Numbered from the stretch's first letter, positions 179 through 7,579 are shown. The stretch: 7,685 nt of DNA from Candidatus Helarchaeota ASGARD archaeon Hel_GB_B (GCA_005191425.1 SUPR01000131.1:1-7685), one strand, 5' to 3'. The notes: generated from the sequence alone by a model not told the origin. Program-made: numbers and translations.

Positions 179-1435
179 TTATTCCCTGACCTGACCATTT
201 CCATAAATAATGAATTTTGTGCTTGTGAGTTCATTTAAACTCATTGGACCTCTAGCATGTAGTTTCTGTGTGCTAATACCGATTTCGGCTCCTAAGCCAA
301 ATTGCCCTCCATCTGTAAATCTTGTTGATGCATTTACATAAACTGCTGCTGCATCTACTTCATTTAAAAACTTTTGAGCATCTGAATAGTTATTGGTAAT
401 AATTGTTTCGGAATGTTTAGAGTCATTTTCAGTAATTATTTCTATTGCTTCATCAATTGAAGATACTATTTTAATAGCAATAATAAGGTCTAAAAATTCA
501 GTTTTCCAATCTTGTTGGGAGGCTTCTATCACATTTGGAAGAATTTTACGAGTTTTAGAGCATCCTCTTATTTGCACATTATATTCATTTAATGCTTTTT
601 CAATAAATGGTAAAAATTTTTCTGCGATTTTTTCGTGGATCAAAATTTTATCAGCTGCATTACAGACTGCTGGTCTTTGGGTTTTAGCATTAATAATAAT
701 TTTTTTAGCCATTTCAAAATCCGCATCATAATTTACAAAAATACTCACAATACCTTCTCCTGTTTCGATAGTTGGTACCGTAGAATTTTGTACTACTTTT
801 TGTATCAGATCTCTCCCGCCTCTTGGGATGATTACATCTATGTATTTATTTAATTTAAGCATTAAATCTACTAATTTTCTATCGGTAATTTCGATTAGTT
901 GAATACAATTTTGAGGTGCTCCTGCTTTTACCGATACCTCAGATATTATTTTGGTTATTATTTTGTTTGAATTTATGGCTTCACTACCACCTCTCAGAAT
1001 GACCGAATTACCGGATTTAAGACAGATACCCGCTGCATCTGAAGTGACATTTGGTCTTGATTCATAAATAATTCCGATAACACCAAGTGGAACTCTTACT
1101 CTTCCAATTAAAAGGCCATTTGGGCGCTTCCACATTGAAATTATTTCTCCAATTGGATCATTCAAAGGAATTAAATCTCTTAGTCCATTGGACATATCTT
1201 TAATTCGTTTTTCGTTTAAAATTAATCTGTCAATTTTAGCTTTAGATATTCCTTTTTCACGAGCTTTCTCTATATCCTTAATATTTTCTCCAATTATTAT
1301 GTCCGCATTTTTTTCTAGAGCATCTGCCATACTGTCTAGGATTTTATTTTTAATATCTGAAGATAGTAGGGCTAATTTTCGAGATGCTATCTTAGCCCTT
1401 TCACCAATTTCAGTAATGTATTTTTCATAATCCAT
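179..1435 (-). CDS. proA: Gamma-glutamyl phosphate reductase (glutamate-5-semialdehyde dehydrogenase)
   Basis: Motifs PLGVIGIIYESRPNVT, GNSVILRGGSEA, IIPRGG, KTQRPAVCNA (catalytic Cys), VNASTRFTDG and GAEIGISTQKLHARGP. Start set at ATG 1435 (MDYEKY), preceded by GTGATG. ATG 1441 is an alternative. The track start at 1474 overlaps proB. Confidence 0.96.
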   Translation of the reverse strand: MDYEKYITEIGERAKIASRKLALLSSDIKNKILDSMADALEKNADIIIGENIKDIEKAREKGISKAKIDRLILNEKRIKDMSNGLRDLIPLNDPIGEIISMWKRPNGLLIGRVRVPLGVIGIIYESRPNVTSDAAGICLKSGNSVILRGGSEAINSNKIITKIISEVSVKAGAPQNCIQLIEITDRKLVDLMLKLNKYIDVIIPRGGRDLIQKVVQNSTVPTIETGEGIVSIFVNYDADFEMAKKIIINAKTQRPAVCNAADKILIHEKIAEKFLPFIEKALNEYNVQIRGCSKTRKILPNVIEASQQDWKTEFLDLIIAIKIVSSIDEAIEIITENDSKHSETIITNNYSDAQKFLNEVDAAAVYVNASTRFTDGGQFGLGAEIGISTQKLHARGPMSLNELTSTKFIIYGNGQVRE

Positions 1436-1445
1436 AATCATCACA

Positions 1446-2216
1446 TTATTTCTCGGGTAAGAATAAAGTACCAATTATTTTACCTTTTAAAATATCAATT
1501 ATCACATTATCTTGAGTGCCATTAGCTATAACAACAGGGATACCAACATTAATCAATTTTTTAGTAGCATTAATTTTACTTTTCATACCCCCAATTGATA
1601 AATTAGACTCAAAATCTTGTGATAATTTTTCAATTTCATGGGTAATTTTTTGAACTTCGTGTATAATTGAAAATTTTGGATTTTTTTGAGGATTACAATC
1701 GCATAATCCATCAATTGTTGATAGAAAAATAACAATGTCCACAAACATTAAAAGCCCTACCAAGGCGGTGAGTGTATCGTTATCTCCAAAAGTAATTTCC
1801 TCAACAGCAACTGTATCATTTTCATTTATAATTGGTAAAATATCAAGTTCAATTAGTTCAGAAATTGTATTTCTTAAATGGGTTCGTCTAATAGAATCTT
1901 TAGTATCTTCTTTTGTCATTAATATTTGTCCAATTTTTATGTTATATTTATTAAATATTTTTTCATAAATACTCATTAAATGTGGTTGTCCAATTGCTGC
2001 AAGAGCTTGTAATTGCTCTAATTTGCTAGGTCTTTCTTTTATTTTTTGAATTTTCATTCCGCATCCAATTGCTCCACTGCTCACTAAAATAACTTTTTTT
2101 CCGGCATTTTTTAATTCGGCTATTTGTTTGACAATTTTTTCGATAATATCATAATAAATTATGTCCTTTCCATCAGTCAGTAAATTTGTTCCAACTTTTA
2201 TTATTATACTTTCCAT
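1446..2216 (-). CDS. proB: Glutamate 5-kinase, short form without PUA domain
   Basis: Motifs IIIKVGTN, VSSGAI, AAIGQ, PIINENDTV, FGDNDTL and GGMKSK. Ends after the kinase domain. Adjacent to proA. Start more likely ATG 2216 (MESIIIKVG) than 2243. Confidence 0.95.
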   Translation of the reverse strand: MESIIIKVGTNLLTDGKDIIYYDIIEKIVKQIAELKNAGKKVILVSSGAIGCGMKIQKIKERPSKLEQLQALAAIGQPHLMSIYEKIFNKYNIKIGQILMTKEDTKDSIRRTHLRNTISELIELDILPIINENDTVAVEEITFGDNDTLTALVGLLMFVDIVIFLSTIDGLCDCNPQKNPKFSIIHEVQKITHEIEKLSQDFESNLSIGGMKSKINATKKLINVGIPVVIANGTQDNVIIDILKGKIIGTLFLPEK

Positions 2217-2414
2217 TTTATGATTTAAAAAGAAAGATCTCATTTATTTTTACCTAATATATTTTAATTTTCTACTATTAAATATAATACTCTAGAATAT
2301 TTAACAAATTATTAATTTATTAAATTAAAGTTTTATTTAAAATGTAATTGTAAATGTAATTTTTAAAAAAATATTAACGTTCAATTTAATTTGTTTTTTA
2401 TGATGATAAAGATT

Positions 2415-3632
2415 TTAATATTTTCTAACCTTTTCCTCTTCTTTTAATCTTCTTATCTCTCTTGTAATTGCTGGCACGACTTTATGTAAATCGCCTACTA
2501 TTCCATAATGTGCGATTTCAAATATTGGTGCATTAGGGTCTTTATTTATAGCAACAATAATGTCTGAACACAATATTCCCACTTTATGTTGAATTGCTCC
2601 AGAGATCCCGCATGCAATATAAAGTCTAGGTGAAATTGTTTTACCTGTTTGACCCACTTGTCGTTCTGGGTCTATCCACCCTAATTCTACGGCTACTCTA
2701 GACCCTGCAACTTCAGCATTTAATTCTTTGGCTAAATCTTTGATAATCTTAAAATTTTCTTTGCTACCAATACCTCTTCCCCCAGCAACAACTATCTGGG
2801 CTTCCTCCAGATTAATCCTTTTTTTTCCGCGTTTTATTATTTTAACAATATTTGTGGAAATATCTGATTCTTTAAATTTACCTTCTATAATCTTAATTTT
2901 AGGCTTCTTGTCCATCTTTTTTGGAACTTTAAACATTCCTGGCCTAATTGTGCTCATTTGTGGTCTGCTATTTGGTGTTCTTATTGTAGCCATGATATTT
3001 CCTCCGAATGTGGGTCTTGTTTGTAATAATAGGTTTCTGGTCTCTTGGTCTATATCTAATCCTGTACAATCGGCTGTTAACCCTGTTTGAAGCCTTTTAG
3101 ATATTCTTGGTGCAAAATCTCTCCCAATTGGAGTTGCTCCTACTAACACTATTTCTGGTTTATATTCAATTATTAGATCTGTAATCACATTAACATAAAT
3201 TTCTGAATAATAATTTCGTAATAGCGGCGATTTCACATATATAACTCTATCAGCGCCATACATCCCTAATTCTTCTAAATTTTCATCTAATTCTGAACCC
3301 AACAAAATAAGTGTTAATTCAACTTTTAATTTATCTGCAAGTTCACGTCCCTTACCTAATAATTGATAAACATAATTCTTTATTTTATTGTTATAATGTT
3401 CACCTATTATCCAAACTCCTTTATATTGCGAAATATCGATTTTTTTTTCTTTTTTCTCGTCTTTAATTATTATTGCACCGACAGGACATGCTTCTACACA
3501 TGCTCCGCATAAAATACATTTTTCAGGAATTAGTTTTGCTTTTCCATCAAAAAGCGTTATTCCTCCATAAAGACATGAATTAATACAACTACCGCAACCA
3601 GTACAGTTTTCTCTATCTATTTTAATTGACAT
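2415..3632 (-). CDS. etfA: Electron transfer flavoprotein alpha subunit with N-terminal 2x[4Fe-4S] ferredoxin domain
   Basis: N-terminal C10-C13-C16-C20 and C39-C42-C45-C49-P motifs. ETF alpha motifs LTADCT, RPTFGGN, VAGGRG, QVGQTGK, GISGAIQH and AINKDPNAPIF. Confidence 0.95.
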   Translation of the reverse strand: MSIKIDRENCTGCGSCINSCLYGGITLFDGKAKLIPEKCILCGACVEACPVGAIIIKDEKKEKKIDISQYKGVWIIGEHYNNKIKNYVYQLLGKGRELADKLKVELTLILLGSELDENLEELGMYGADRVIYVKSPLLRNYYSEIYVNVITDLIIEYKPEIVLVGATPIGRDFAPRISKRLQTGLTADCTGLDIDQETRNLLLQTRPTFGGNIMATIRTPNSRPQMSTIRPGMFKVPKKMDKKPKIKIIEGKFKESDISTNIVKIIKRGKKRINLEEAQIVVAGGRGIGSKENFKIIKDLAKELNAEVAGSRVAVELGWIDPERQVGQTGKTISPRLYIACGISGAIQHKVGILCSDIIVAINKDPNAPIFEIAHYGIVGDLHKVVPAITREIRRLKEEEKVRKY

Positions 3633-3642
3633 TTTTTATCAT

Positions 3643-4449
3643 CTACAAAATTTTGTCTTCCTTTAATTTCTGACATAAATCTTTTGCCACGTCCTCTATT
3701 GTACCAGATAATTTAATATATTCATTTTTTTGTGGCGGAATAAAAATTTTATAAACTTGAGTTCTTGATCCTTCTAACCCAATTTTTTGTATATCTGCAT
3801 CTAAATCTTTAGCATTCCAATGAACGACCTCTTTATAATCAAAAGCATCTACTATTCCAGAAATTGTTGGAAATCTTGGTACATTTAACTCCTTCAAAAC
3901 TGTAATAAGAACTGGTAATTTACACTCTATAACCGCTATTTCATCAGATTGAAAAATACTTTCTGCAATGATTTTATTTTCGCTTAATTCAACATATCTT
4001 ACATTTGTTATTTGAGGTATATTCAACTCTTCAGCTAATTCAGGACCAACTTGTGCCGTATCCCCATCAATTGCTTGAGCGCCACAAACTACGAGATAAT
4101 TTTTGGATTCTTCAGTTTCTTTTAAAATCTTCTTAATTGCTAATGATAAAGTATAGGAAGTAGCTAAAGTATCAGCACCACCAAAAGCTCTGTCTGTCAA
4201 TAAATAGGCCTTGTCGATTCCCATAGCTAGCGATTCCCTTAATATTTCTTCAGCTTGAGGTGGACCCATACTTAACGCAATTACATCTGCACCAGTATTT
4301 TCTTTGATTGATAATGCCAATTCAAGCGCATTCTTGTCCATAGGATTTATCATTCCGGGAACCCCTTCCCTGACTAATGTCCCTGTTTTCCTATCAATCT
4401 TCACCTCAGAAATTGCCGGTACCTGCTTAATACAAACAAAAATTTTCAT
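3643..4449 (-). CDS. etfB: Electron transfer flavoprotein beta subunit
   Basis: Motifs MKIFVCIKQVP, INPMD, SMGPP, DRAFGGADTLATS and QAIDGDTAQVGP. Ends 10 nt upstream of etfA. AAGGA precedes the ATG. Confidence 0.95.
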   Translation of the reverse strand: MKIFVCIKQVPAISEVKIDRKTGTLVREGVPGMINPMDKNALELALSIKENTGADVIALSMGPPQAEEILRESLAMGIDKAYLLTDRAFGGADTLATSYTLSLAIKKILKETEESKNYLVVCGAQAIDGDTAQVGPELAEELNIPQITNVRYVELSENKIIAESIFQSDEIAVIECKLPVLITVLKELNVPRFPTISGIVDAFDYKEVVHWNAKDLDADIQKIGLEGSRTQVYKIFIPPQKNEYIKLSGTIEDVAKDLCQKLKEDKIL

Positions 4450-4806
4450 TAGAATTTCCTTTTATTCAAATTAATTTTTAAAGATTGTTTATTATCCTTA
4501 AATTATTAATATTTATTGGTTTAAATACAAAATTCATTATATATATCAAAAATATATAATTTTTATTTTAAACTTTTTATGTCCTAAATTAAGCCAATTT
4601 TTTGTGCTCAAACCTTAAAAAACCTAAATAATATTTTTTCATCAATAATTTAAATATAAACGCTTAACTAATTTTGTTGAAATTATTTTCCAATAAAAAT
4701 TTTTTTCTAAAAATTATTAAGATAAAATATTATCAGAAAAAAATATAAACGAATAACGAATTTTTACCAAAATTCATATCCAATCAAAATCTTTTATTTA
4801 TATAAT

Positions 4807-4825
4807 AAAAAAGAATATAAAAAAA
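4807..4825 (-). terminator. Possible oligo-U terminator downstream of the ACAD gene
   Basis: T7 (4825-4819) and T6 (4812-4807) tracts on the minus strand about 40 nt after the TGA at 4863. Weak evidence in such AT-rich DNA. Confidence 0.25.
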
Positions 4826-4862
4826 TTAATTAGTATGTTCTAATTTATTTACAGTTCTTTTA

Positions 4863-6048
4863 TCAATGTATGTCTTTTAATAATCTCCTTGCTATCACCA
4901 TTCTTTGTATTTCAGAGGTGCCCTCATAGATTTTAGCCATATAATAACTAATGTTAAGATATTTCGGCCATCTTAGCATCTCTAAAATAACGTTCTACTT
5001 GGTATGCCTTCATTAGACCATAACCACCATGCACTTGAACTGCCATATGAGCGGCTTTCATGGCAGCTTCACTTGCCATTAATTTAGCCATAGACGATTC
5101 CAAGCCATAATCTAATCCTTGATCGCAAAGATAAGCTGATTTATAGGTAAGAAGTCTAGCAGACTCAATAGTGCAACCCATATCGGCAATTTTCCACTGA
5201 ACTCCTTGAAATTGAGCTATTTTTCTACCAAATTGTTCTCTTTCATTAGCATATCTTATAGATGCTTCTAAACACGCTTGTGCAAGCCCAACACATTGAG
5301 CAGCGATTATTATTCTTCCAAAATCCAAAATTTTCAATACGATTTTAAATCCATTACCAATACCGCCTAAAATGTTTTCTTTGGGTACTCTAACATCTTG
5401 GAACACAAGTTCTGAAGTATTTGAAGCTCTAACCCCTAACTTATCTTCTTTTACCCCTACGGAGAACCCTGGTGTATCTGTATCAACTATAAATACGGTA
5501 AAACTTGGGTGTTTGCCTTTCTCACCTGTTCTGGCTGCAACTAATAAAGTTTTAGCTATACCACCATTTGTAGCAAAAATCTTACTTCCATTTAACACCC
5601 ATTCATCACCATCAAGATATGCATTCGTTTCTATACCAGCTGCATCAGACCCTGCATTCGCTTCTGTTAAAGCAAAAGCACCTAACCGCTCACCAGTGGC
5701 TAATGGATATAAAAACTTTTGACGCTGATATTCATTACCAAAAATCCAAAGAGGATATGCAACAACACTACAATGTACTCCGACTGTAATTGCCCAAGAA
5801 GCATCAATTCTCCCAATTTCCTCTATTATTATTGCAAAACTAACTGTGTCATTTTGTAATCCTGCTCCTCCGTATTTTTTTGGAATGCAAATACCAAAAT
5901 AGTTCATTTTCTTCATTAATTCAAAAACTTTCTGGTTAAGTTCTTGCTTTTTATCACTCTCTTCCGCAATAGGTGCTATATATTCTTCGACAAATTCTCT
6001 GGTTATTCTCCTGATCATTTTCTGTTTTTCAGTAATTGAAAAATCCAT
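4863..6048 (-). CDS. Acyl-CoA dehydrogenase (short-chain/butyryl-CoA dehydrogenase-like), split gene: complement(join(4863..4932,4964..6048)), 384 aa after removal of a 31-nt intron
   Basis: Exon 1 has GAFALTEANAGSD, LNGSKIFATNG, KLGVRAS, REQFG, QVHGGYG and ERYFRDAK. The conserved C-terminus IYEGTSEIQRMVIARRLL lies in the +1 frame at 4931..4866, with TGA at 4865..4863. Start taken as ATG 6048 (MDFSITE), preceded by GTGGT. The ACAD family call is secure. The spliced model is a prediction. Confidence 0.9.
4933..4963 (-). other. Putative 31-nt bulge-helix-bulge (archaeal tRNA-endonuclease-type) mRNA intron, AAUAUCUUAACAUUAGUUAUUAUAUGGCUAA
   Basis: Outer helix AGAU(4973-4970)/AUCU(4931-4928). 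Central 4-bp helix GGCC(4969-4966)/GGCU(4938-4935). Three-nt bulges GAA(4965-4963) and AAA(4934-4932). Inner helix AUAU(4962-4959)/AUAU(4942-4939), then UAAC/GUUA closing an AUUA loop. Cleavage after the 2nd nt of each bulge gives GA|A AUC UAU GAG and restores the frame. Confidence 0.85.
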
Positions 6049-6229
6049 TTTTACCACAAAATTATAATTAATTTCCAATTTTCTTTAAATTTAAATTAAA
6101 AACAAATATTTACTTAATTAATTTCACAAAAATTTATTATAAATAGGATTGATTAATAAAAAAATAATTACTAACATATTTAAATTAAAGATAAATTTGA
6201 TAATTGATTCATTTTGTAAGTGGAAAAAT
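6049..6229. promoter_or_regulatory. Divergent intergenic region, likely holding promoters for ACAD (-) and the TPR-BKACE-SDR unit (+)
   Basis: Flanking genes point away from each other. A-rich run followed by TTTATTATAAAT near 6127-6144 resembles BRE/TATA. Exact elements cannot be assigned. Confidence 0.4.
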
Positions 6230-6739
6230 ATGGAAAATAATAATGTAGTTCGGGATTATTCTGAAGAATATCAAATATCTAAAGATATGTTTGATTCTTA
6301 TAATAAATCTAAAATCCTAAAAGAAATGGGAATAAAAATTAGTAAAACAAATCCCGAAAAAGCTTTAGATTATTTTCAGAAATCTTTAAGATCAATAAAA
6401 AAGCTGAGAATAAAGTCAAAAAATGACTCTTTAAAGAAATATTATCTTAAATCTGAATTATTTTTTAATATAGGAAAAATATATCAAGAATTAAATGATA
6501 TCAAAAAAGCCTTGCATTTCTTTAAATTTGCAAGTAAAGCTTGTAAACGGACTGAAAACAAAATTTTATCTGCAGCAATTGCCACTTCGATTTTATCAAT
6601 TAATTTTAATCTAGATTACAATAATAAATCAAAGGAAAATAAAATTAAGAACCAAATTAAATTTAATTGGATGTTTTTAATGGCAAATATTTTGTTTGGG
6701 GTATTAATTTTAATAATGATTTTTCTATTTTTTAAATAA
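6230..6739 (+). CDS. Hypothetical TPR-like helical protein with C-terminal transmembrane anchor
   Basis: Two TPR-like units (KILKEMGIKISKTNPEKALDYFQKSL; ELFFNIGKIYQELNDIKKALHFFKFAS) and a terminal hydrophobic segment FNWMFLMANILFGVLILIMIFLFFK*. Start more likely ATG 6230 than 6149. Confidence 0.65.
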   Translation: MENNNVVRDYSEEYQISKDMFDSYNKSKILKEMGIKISKTNPEKALDYFQKSLRSIKKLRIKSKNDSLKKYYLKSELFFNIGKIYQELNDIKKALHFFKFASKACKRTENKILSAAIATSILSINFNLDYNNKSKENKIKNQIKFNWMFLMANILFGVLILIMIFLFFK

Positions 6740-6778
6740 GTAATTTAGAATTATAAAGAAGTAAAAGTGAATTAAAAA

Positions 6779-7579
6779 TTGAAGGAAAAATTAATAATTA
6801 CTGCAACTAATGCAAATTCATGGATCTATCCTGATGTGAAAAACTGGCCAAATCCAGAAAATGTGGACGAACTTGTTGAAGATGTTATAAAATCATATAA
6901 AGCAGGGGCAAGTATAGCGCATATTCATCTCCCTCTTAGTAAAGAAGCAGAAACCGTTAATAAAATTAGAGAGCAGTGTGATATAATTATTCAAGCTGGG
7001 ATGTCTAGCTATCCTTTAAGTGAACGTTCTGCAACATTTGAAGCGAAACCTGACATGATTTCCATAATTTTAAACCACCATGATGAACATTTTACTCAGT
7101 TGCATGTTAATCAAATACATTCTCTTGAGGAATTAGAACAATATTGTGCCATGTGCAAAAAATATAAAATTAAACCAGAATGGGAAGTTTGGCATACTGG
7201 TTCATTTTGGAATTTAAAATATCTCATTGAGAAAAAATTAATAGAACCTCCACATGTTTTAACTTTCTTTTTTAATTGGCCCGGTGGTACTTGGAGTCCT
7301 CCAGTCCCTGAAGAATATCTACATCGTTTAAAATTCATGCCGATAAATTGCAAACATACTGTAAGTATTATGGGGAAAGAACAGACAACAATAGCTACAT
7401 TAGCAATTGCATTAGGTGGAAATGTAAGAGTAGGAACTGAAGATTATCCTTTTATCCAAGAAAATGTCCCTGCAAAAGACACATCCGAATTAGTATCAAG
7501 AATGGTTAGAATTTCAAAGGAAATGGGTAGAGAAATTGCCAAACCATCAGAAGCTAGAAAAATTTTAGGTATAAAATGA
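6779..7579 (+). CDS. Beta-keto acid cleavage enzyme family protein (BKACE/DUF849, Kce-like)
   Basis: KLIITA start, GASIAHIH (metal HxH), IKPEWEVW, ALGGNVRVGTED (family GGxVRVGLED) and AKPSEARKILG end. TTG start preceded by GTGA. Confidence 0.88.
   Translation: MKEKLIITATNANSWIYPDVKNWPNPENVDELVEDVIKSYKAGASIAHIHLPLSKEAETVNKIREQCDIIIQAGMSSYPLSERSATFEAKPDMISIILNHHDEHFTQLHVNQIHSLEELEQYCAMCKKYKIKPEWEVWHTGSFWNLKYLIEKKLIEPPHVLTFFFNWPGGTWSPPVPEEYLHRLKFMPINCKHTVSIMGKEQTTIATLAIALGGNVRVGTEDYPFIQENVPAKDTSELVSRMVRISKEMGREIAKPSEARKILGIK

Follow-up and report, generated by a model that had tools for sequence, protein, structure and literature searches.

An acyl-CoA dehydrogenase gene split beside its catalytic glutamate

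Coordinates refer throughout to the window, the whole 7,685-nt stretch that was analysed, which forms a 7.7-kb contig of the metagenome-assembled genome (MAG) of Candidatus Helarchaeota archaeon Hel_GB_B (3.54 Mb, 28% GC, 182 contigs). Its minus strand carries a gene for an acyl-CoA dehydrogenase (ACAD) resembling butyryl-CoA dehydrogenase (Bcd), the coding sequence of which is interrupted by 31 nt that very probably represent a genuine intron with a bulge-helix-bulge (BHB) structure, spliced by the endonuclease EndA and the ligase RtcB. The ACAD open reading frame (ORF; 4954-6078, minus strand) ends in ...RYFRDAKMAEIS, that is ...KMAEIS, at a TAA stop codon (4956-4954). The ACAD sequence resumes 31 nt further on in a different frame (4932-4863, minus strand), which reads (E)IYEGTSEIQRMVIARRLLKDIH up to its own stop.

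Exon 1, as delimited by the ORF, its translation and matches to the Pfam families Acyl-CoA_dh_N, Acyl-CoA_dh_M and Acyl-CoA_dh_1, extends over 4964-6048 on the minus strand. Its probable start is the ATG at 6048, with an upstream TTG at 6078 likewise open. It is 88% identical to an intronless ortholog from the same genus, the ORF of which (called with a TTG start) begins at the aligned MDFSITEKQK. The final two bases of exon 1, GA, are the first two of the Glu362 codon (4965-4964), and exon 2 (4863-4932, minus strand) supplies the third base of this codon followed by Ile, Tyr, Glu365 (GAG, 4925-4923), the last helix and a TGA stop codon (4865-4863). The insert lies in phase 2 of Glu362, three codons ahead of Glu365 (numbering from the ATG at 6048).

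Exon 1 matches every one of the domains that make up an ACAD (N, middle and C-terminal; PF02771, PF02770 and PF00441), and the two exons share the 150-position Acyl-CoA_dh_1 profile, with exon 1 covering positions 1-133 and exon 2 positions 130-150. Among solved structures, the best relatives of the intronless ortholog are the Bcd subunits of Bcd-EtfAB complexes (5OL2_C, 4L1F), 1BUC, short-chain acyl-CoA dehydrogenase (SCAD) and CarC, with further matches to 1JQI and 3MDD. The ortholog aligns to 5OL2_C, 4L1F and 1BUC with no column gaps across RDAKxxEIYEGTSEIQR, such that its RDAKMSEIYEGTSEIQR pairs with RDAKITEIYEGTSEVQR of 5OL2_C. In the group formed by Bcd, SCAD and the medium-chain enzyme (MCAD) the catalytic base is the Glu of the YEG motif (MCAD E376, M. 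elsdenii BCD E367), and by alignment to the solved enzymes and this textbook role Glu365 is assigned as the catalytic base. A reading of this DNA made earlier from its sequence only (the sequence-only reading) had held that the junction splits the Glu codon of MAE and leaves the YEG glutamate and the terminal helix in exon 2; the frames, the Pfam matches and the structural alignment all confirm this arrangement.

Once spliced, the message would read K-M-A-E362-I-Y-E365-G-T through the junction and encode a protein of 384 aa. Unspliced RNA meets a premature TAA two codons into the intron (4954-4956, minus strand), and its 364-residue product, ...MAEIS at the C terminus, is without the catalytic base and almost certainly inactive. 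Because the unspliced product lacks the catalytic Glu, splicing would be obligatory for an active enzyme, and to this extent the dependence of activity on splicing that the sequence-only reading proposed is borne out at the level of the predicted products. Compared with the same-genus ortholog, the gene has a pN of 0.089 and a pS of 0.79 (non-synonymous and synonymous differences per site), values by which it is judged intact and under strong purifying selection. The other ACAD paralogs in the genome show no interruption at the Glu362 site.

The insert is predicted to fold as a canonical bulge-helix-bulge intron

We folded the RNA corresponding to 4990-4915 (minus strand) with no constraint, and the minimum free energy (MFE) structure yielded a canonical hBHBh' motif, AGAU-GGCC-(GA/A)-AUAU...AUAU-GGCU-(AA/A)-AUCU, in which the slashes mark the predicted cuts and the 4+4+4 pairs are all standard. 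The outer helix is formed by AGAU (4973-4970) with AUCU (4931-4928), the central helix by GGCC (4969-4966) with GGCU (4938-4935) and the inner helix by AUAU (4962-4959) with AUAU (4942-4939), leaving two 3-nt bulges on opposite strands. The 5' exonic strands together occupy 4966-4973 and are followed by the 5' bulge GAA (4965-4963); on the other side the 3' bulge AAA (4934-4932) and the exonic outer strand occupy 4928-4934. The orientation is that of pre-tRNA substrates: relative to the central helix, the 5' bulge lies inward and the 3' bulge outward. The intron proper (4933-4963, minus strand) runs from the third base of the 5' bulge through the first inner AUAU, a hairpin with its loop, the second inner AUAU and GGCU to the first two bases of the 3' bulge.

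In cbf5 introns, cleavage occurs between the second and third bulge residues (PMC2738675). Equivalent cuts are predicted here between 4964 and 4963 and between 4933 and 4932, and excision of 4963-4933 would join GA to A (4932), giving KMAEIYEGTSEIQR, with both the frame and the motif restored and a motif length equal to that of 44 intronless orthologs. The cut sites predicted by the structure therefore coincide with the deletion predicted by homology. The fold extends beyond the BHB into a structured element of 82 nt in all (4908-4989, minus strand, in the MFE structure), in which an exon-exon stem flanks the motif (4989-4980 paired with 4917-4908, and 4978-4975 with 4922-4919) and the catalytic GAG sits in a 5-nt internal loop (4927-4923).

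Rfam gave zero matches in the window at E ≤ 1, and a blastn-short search for copies of the intron elsewhere in the genome returned only chance AT-rich matches. A self-splicing or mobile intron of group I or II was considered and rejected on the grounds of the 31-nt length, the lack of an ORF, the lack of an Rfam match and the single copy.

The genome encodes the machinery that such an intron would need. Two genes of the EndA family (PF01974; contigs C36 and C98; 98.6 and 75.1 bits) and one RtcB gene (PF01139; contig C105; 568 bits) score above the Pfam cut-offs. Inspected by eye, the first EndA ORF retains the Tyr/His/Lys pattern and the second is without the His at the aligned place. Asgard archaea have been described as having an (alpha-beta)2 EndA with an L1 loop (PMC5829648), and the pair found here fits this architecture, the alpha-like and beta-like labels being our reading of the ORFs. 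With a canonical BHB, a restored frame and genes for both EndA and RtcB, the assignment of the intron to the EndA/RtcB type in the sequence-only reading stands.

The same nucleotide is interrupted in related genomes

Close orthologs taken from 41 relatives are mostly uninterrupted (28 of 30, the same-genus genome included). A degenerate pattern for inserts at this site was also run against 161 genomes from the class and against another 239 from the phylum. An insert of 30-31 nt was found at exactly the same position in 7 of the 161 class genomes, which belong to two orders, and in 0 of the 239 further genomes searched. Pattern matches in three genomes (G146, G335 and G376) were set aside as unrelated in-frame sequences that are not introns.

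All seven introns interrupt one and the same Glu codon in phase 2. Those outside the window, six introns in family f4, are 30 nt long, and a UAA or UAG stands in frame in every one of them. Pairing of the outer helix is complete (4/4) in 7/7 intron-bearing genes compared with 25/44 intronless ones, and the central helix has 4/4 pairs in three of the intron-bearing genes and 3/4 in four. Two genomes (G081 and G088) have a 5' junction of GA/U, where the unspliced codon is Asp (GAU) and the spliced codon is Glu (GAA) with its third base taken from exon 2, a configuration that is hard to explain unless the splice lies exactly at the predicted place. Across the six f4 sequences a 31-pair structure has 89.8% of its cells paired, compared with 31-44% when the partners are slid, and six pairs are altered on both sides, a number reached by 0 of 500 shuffles; by this analysis the border helices are kept with compensatory change in homologous introns. 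One of the intron-bearing orthologs (L115; G064:C379) has ∼46 residues missing in frame near its N terminus (341 aa; MDFSLSKKQ joined to EIGAGLQDDT), and the shortening may mean that the gene is in decay, that another intervening sequence has gone unrecognised or that the MAG is misassembled there.

Similarity among the six f4 introns is significant, and a shared origin therefore follows for them. The intron of the window has no detectable similarity to these six; it was either gained independently at that site or has diverged beyond recognition, in a setting where synonymous sites are saturated already within the genus (pS 0.79). The sequence-only reading had suggested mapping the intron on an ACAD tree, to see whether the site is recurrent; in a tree of 51 Asgard orthologs the intron-bearing genes are scattered, each beside a close intronless sister, with one such pair 97% identical in protein. 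Intron presence requires at least 6 state changes on this gene tree, a count of gains and losses limited by MAG sampling, and forced monophyly of the intron-bearing genes is rejected (delta lnL 475; approximately unbiased test, p-AU 5.6e-54). Every one of the intronless alleles has the motif intact, with no scar. Given these scarless alleles, the intron has evidently been lost or gained precisely and repeatedly. Because the window intron shares no detectable sequence similarity with the six related ones, it is conceivable, though not the favoured reading, that BHB introns insert preferentially at this site in the catalytic motif and have done so repeatedly.

Flanking exons seem adapted to the intron

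We also compared the exon-exon duplex, calculated with 30 nt of exon on each side, between genes with and without the intron. The duplex energy is -18.7 kcal/mol in the window gene and ranges from -14.1 to -18.9 kcal/mol in the 7 intron-bearing genes, compared with a mean of -7.6 kcal/mol in the 44 intronless genes, only 3 of which are at or below -14 kcal/mol. Sister comparisons of this energy all go in the same direction (6/6). A related bias is seen in the Ile codon after the junction, which is never AUA in the intron-bearing genes, whereas AUA is common in the intronless ones. Together these patterns suggest that selection on synonymous sites preserves the splicing structure; such exon adaptation speaks for real splicing and faintly suggests that the intron is costly to bear.

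Other interrupted genes in the genome

The genome was also scanned for BHB motifs that join ORFs. The loose motif gave ∼2075 matches, compared with 1940 under a parallel-pairing control; in a comparison with controls in which the 3' splice site was moved by 1-2 nt, it gave ∼1050 matches in the shifted and unshifted forms alike. The strict canonical motif has 3 matches, ACAD among them, compared with 1-7 in shifted controls. The scan demanded at least 80 open codons upstream and is therefore blind to the two introns described next, and its counts are no measure of the number of mRNA introns in the genome.

At least two further genes of the same genome carry inserts of this kind. A gene for an RFC-family subunit (G000:C107, L125; at about 47.5-48.4 kb of its contig, reverse strand) is interrupted inside the Walker A loop by a BHB insert of 27 nt that contains a stop codon; the central helix of this insert is paired 4/4 and the outer helix 3/4, and removal restores LLLYGPPGIGKTS (GPPGIGKT). 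In rfcS (G000:C131, L124; around position 810-900 of the locus), a 30-nt BHB insert follows ...WVEKYRPR, with central and outer helices paired 4/4 and an inner helix of 9 bp, and its removal gives ...EKYRPRTLSEIINQ. The ACAD, RFC and rfcS introns all lie within highly conserved motifs. This location may be a matter of ascertainment, or may reflect better survival of introns where protein constraint freezes the exonic strands of the helices.

As a separate observation on RNA processing in this organism, ARAGORN, run with its intron mode, finds no more than 6 tRNA genes in the 3.5-Mb genome. So low a count would fit tRNA genes interrupted so heavily that standard finders overlook them, as in a 2026 preprint on Asgard archaea (10.64898/2026.10.13.758758).

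Probably a tolerated, constitutively spliced intron

From the motif, the restored frame, the machinery genes and the comparative pattern we infer the following course of events. In the pre-mRNA, AGAU and GGCC of exon 1 would pair with AUCU of exon 2 and with GGCU at the 3' end of the intron, and this fold would present two 3-nt bulges across a 4-bp helix, buttressed by 14 more exon-exon base pairs. The heteromeric (alpha-beta)2 splicing endonuclease would cut after the second base of each bulge; RtcB would then join the exons and probably circularise the intron, the product being an mRNA for the 384-aa enzyme with Glu365 and the last helix. The intron is most likely removed constitutively, as a tolerated passenger and one of several micro-introns in the genome. 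Selection on synonymous codons in the flanking exons would keep its splicing efficient, and related lineages would have lost or regained the intron more than once, each time with precision. We put the probability that this is a 31-nt BHB intron in a Bcd-like ACAD gene, probably spliced constitutively and carried as a tolerated passenger rather than as a regulatory device, at roughly 0.75.

Several points weigh against this interpretation. Splicing is predicted here from DNA sequence, and its constitutive character is an assumption. The genome-wide scan gave no excess over frame-shifted controls, which makes the motif by itself unconvincing without the homology evidence. Four of the seven same-site introns have only 3/4 central-helix pairs, a relaxed form of the motif. 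Finally, when the duplex energies were compared by an independent-pairs sign test restricted to well-supported branches, 3 pairs went the same way, 0 the opposite way and 1 was a tie (p 0.25), four pairs being too few for significance.

The sequence-only reading had proposed that splicing gates the enzyme, and in such a scheme the cell would modulate removal of the intron by way of its EndA/RtcB capacity or by letting splicing compete with coupled translation, setting the amount of active Bcd-type dehydrogenase. The strict need for splicing if the enzyme is to have its catalytic Glu, the clean truncation produced by a stop two codons into the intron and the strong, selected exon stem, which shows that folding at the site matters, would all suit a gate. 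Precedents can also be named, as removal of the BHB intron in the 5' untranslated region (UTR) of HVO_1309 seems important for efficient expression in Haloferax (PMC7714728), and HAC1/XBP1 splicing employs RtcB. Nevertheless, regulation is disfavoured because of the patchy distribution (7 of 161 class genomes, with no intron in the same-genus relative, in close sisters or in the sister gene that is 97% identical in protein), because nothing is conserved beyond the helices (the six related introns conserve structure with no obvious ligand- or protein-binding sequence, and the window is without an Rfam match), because nuclease and ligase are housekeeping enzymes of general tRNA splicing, and because the same kind of intron occurs in unrelated housekeeping genes, those in the RFC Walker A loop and rfcS arguing for general intron spread. 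No match to the IRE1-type RNase domain PF06479 was found in the genome, control genomes being equally without a match, and the only candidate nuclease is the housekeeping EndA. Retention across orthologs, as would mark a switch like that of HAC1/XBP1, is likewise not what the 7 of 161 genomes and the 6 or more state changes display. We regard a regulatory gate as improbable, and no greater weight attaches to its detailed form, in which ribosomes passing along exon 1 have to unfold the 5' side of the BHB and the spliced fraction is set by a race with coupled translation or by the tRNA-splicing load. Were a gate to operate, active Bcd would be tuned to the RNA-processing state of the cell.

The sequence-only reading had also offered a selfish element at a highly conserved motif that cannot be lost imprecisely. 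The data are indeed better explained by an element, selfish or neutral, at a conserved site than by regulation, but the statement about loss needs correction, since the distribution points to loss or gain that is both precise and repeated.

It is less probable still that the gene is dead, the 31-nt insertion having frameshifted it and the BHB-like fold being a coincidence of AT-rich sequence. What lends this idea some substance is the behaviour of the scan, in which the loose filter fires ∼1000 times in a genome of 28% GC, with equally many matches under frame-shifted controls, and the strict motif is no more distinctive (3 compared with 1-7). A coincidence would not, however, account for predicted cuts that restore the exact ortholog alignment, for a gene that is otherwise intact under strong purifying selection, for six other genomes with an insert at the same nucleotide and covarying helices, or for flanking codon choice that maintains the exon stem only where the insert is present.

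Handling of the interruption during translation, either by ribosome bypass or readthrough or as a two-piece enzyme initiated at the AUG at 4940, which opens MAKIYEGTSEIQ... in the exon 2 frame, appears very unlikely. The 3' end of the intron (4940-4929) nearly repeats the end of exon 1 (AUGGCCGAAAU compared with AUGGCUAAAAU) and supplies an AUG in frame with exon 2 (MAKIYEG...), but this near-repeat is what the palindromic helices GGCC and AUAU produce in a BHB with two-fold symmetry. Such an AUG is missing from all six related introns, every one of which has an in-frame stop; there are no matched take-off and landing codons, and a 25-residue peptide carrying the catalytic base would need to assemble into the active site. 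An assembly or sequencing artefact might be suspected from the short contig of a 182-contig MAG, but it is practically dismissed by the presence of the insert in a 1231-nt contig of a public run that spans 4775-6005 with 0 differences, by a contig from another study that spans 4801-4966 and by the six other MAGs with an insert at the same site.

Neighbouring genes and wider significance

Directly downstream of the ACAD gene and on the same strand lie genes for EtfB (3643-4449, minus strand) and for an EtfA fused to an N-terminal ferredoxin domain with 2x[4Fe-4S] (2415-3632, minus strand), the pair being recognised by Pfam ETF, ETF_alpha and Fer4. The best solved relatives of the ACAD include Bcd from Bcd-EtfAB complexes that are electron-bifurcating, and ACAD-EtfB-EtfA is a candidate bifurcating or ferredoxin-linked module. 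The remainder of the window (179-2243, minus strand, and 6149-7579, plus strand) holds, by Pfam, genes of the amino-acid kinase and aldehyde dehydrogenase families (possibly proB/proA-like), a TPR protein and a beta-keto acid cleavage enzyme (BKACE). Between the ACAD stop codon and EtfB there is a dispersed repeat of ∼85-100 nt (4739-4830), with at least 20 copies of 85-97% identity on other contigs. It coincides with a depth spike at 4753-4803 in public contigs and could be an intergenic element resembling miniature inverted-repeat transposable elements (MITE-like) or repetitive extragenic palindromes (REP-like).

Interrupted genes of this type would be mis-called as truncated or split in MAG annotation, with the consequence that metabolic reconstructions of Asgard archaea are biased (for example, with beta-oxidation or butyryl-CoA steps scored as broken). 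The locus also offers a tractable case in which gain, retention and precise loss of mRNA introns, and splicing alongside coupled translation, can be followed in the closest prokaryotic relatives of eukaryotes.

Comparison with known systems

An intron with a BHB in the pre-mRNA of cbf5, which encodes a pseudouridine synthase, was reportedly described in Crenarchaeota by Watanabe in 2002 and by Yoshinari in 2006. The crenarchaeal cbf5 pre-mRNA intron was treated further by Yokobori in 2009, with lineage-specific loss inferred (PMC2738675). Confirmed archaeal mRNA introns of the BHB type in the literature that we searched are those of crenarchaeal cbf5 and of the HVO_1309 5' UTR in Haloferax (PMC7714728), and for Asgard archaea our search for mRNA introns returned only work on tRNA.

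The HVO_1309 intron of Haloferax volcanii resembles the present one in being an EndA substrate within an mRNA, but it lies in an untranslated leader where the frame is uninterrupted, and it was demonstrated by circRNA-seq and in vitro cleavage (PMC7714728). BHB introns at non-canonical positions of tRNA genes, which are abundant in Asgard archaea (10.64898/2026.10.13.758758; PMC5829648), share the motif, the size range of ∼30 nt and the enzymes, and repeated gains are reported for them. In contrast to these, the ACAD substrate is a translated mRNA, such that removal must restore the frame and competes with ribosomes. A more distant likeness is to HAC1/XBP1, spliced by IRE1 and RtcB, where non-spliceosomal excision of a short mRNA segment also alters the C-terminal part of the protein and ligation is of the RtcB type. 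There, however, twin stem-loops are cut by an endonuclease that senses stress, with unspliced RNA as the regulated default, whereas the nuclease acting on the ACAD message would be a housekeeping tRNA enzyme with no sign of regulation.

The closest parallel is cbf5. Both are short introns in coding sequence, protein-spliced in cbf5 and predicted to be so in ACAD, with a BHB at the borders and a cut between the second and third bulge residues, in hosts with a heteromeric EndA, and both combine a variable interior with conserved border helices and lineage-specific loss. The differences are that ACAD is a metabolic flavoenzyme rather than an RNA-modification enzyme, in an Asgard rather than a crenarchaeal host; that its motif is canonical in the strict sense, relaxed motifs predominating in cbf5; that the intron sits near the 3' end, beside a catalytic residue; and that its turnover is far patchier (7/161 genomes, at least 6 changes), the ACAD intron being predicted from DNA. 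Published protein-spliced introns within archaeal coding sequences rest essentially on cbf5, and the ACAD gene would extend the mechanism to a core metabolic flavoenzyme. On these features the ACAD intron is classed as an mRNA BHB intron of the cbf5 type for which both host gene and lineage are new; its motif is unusually clean and its comparative record informative.

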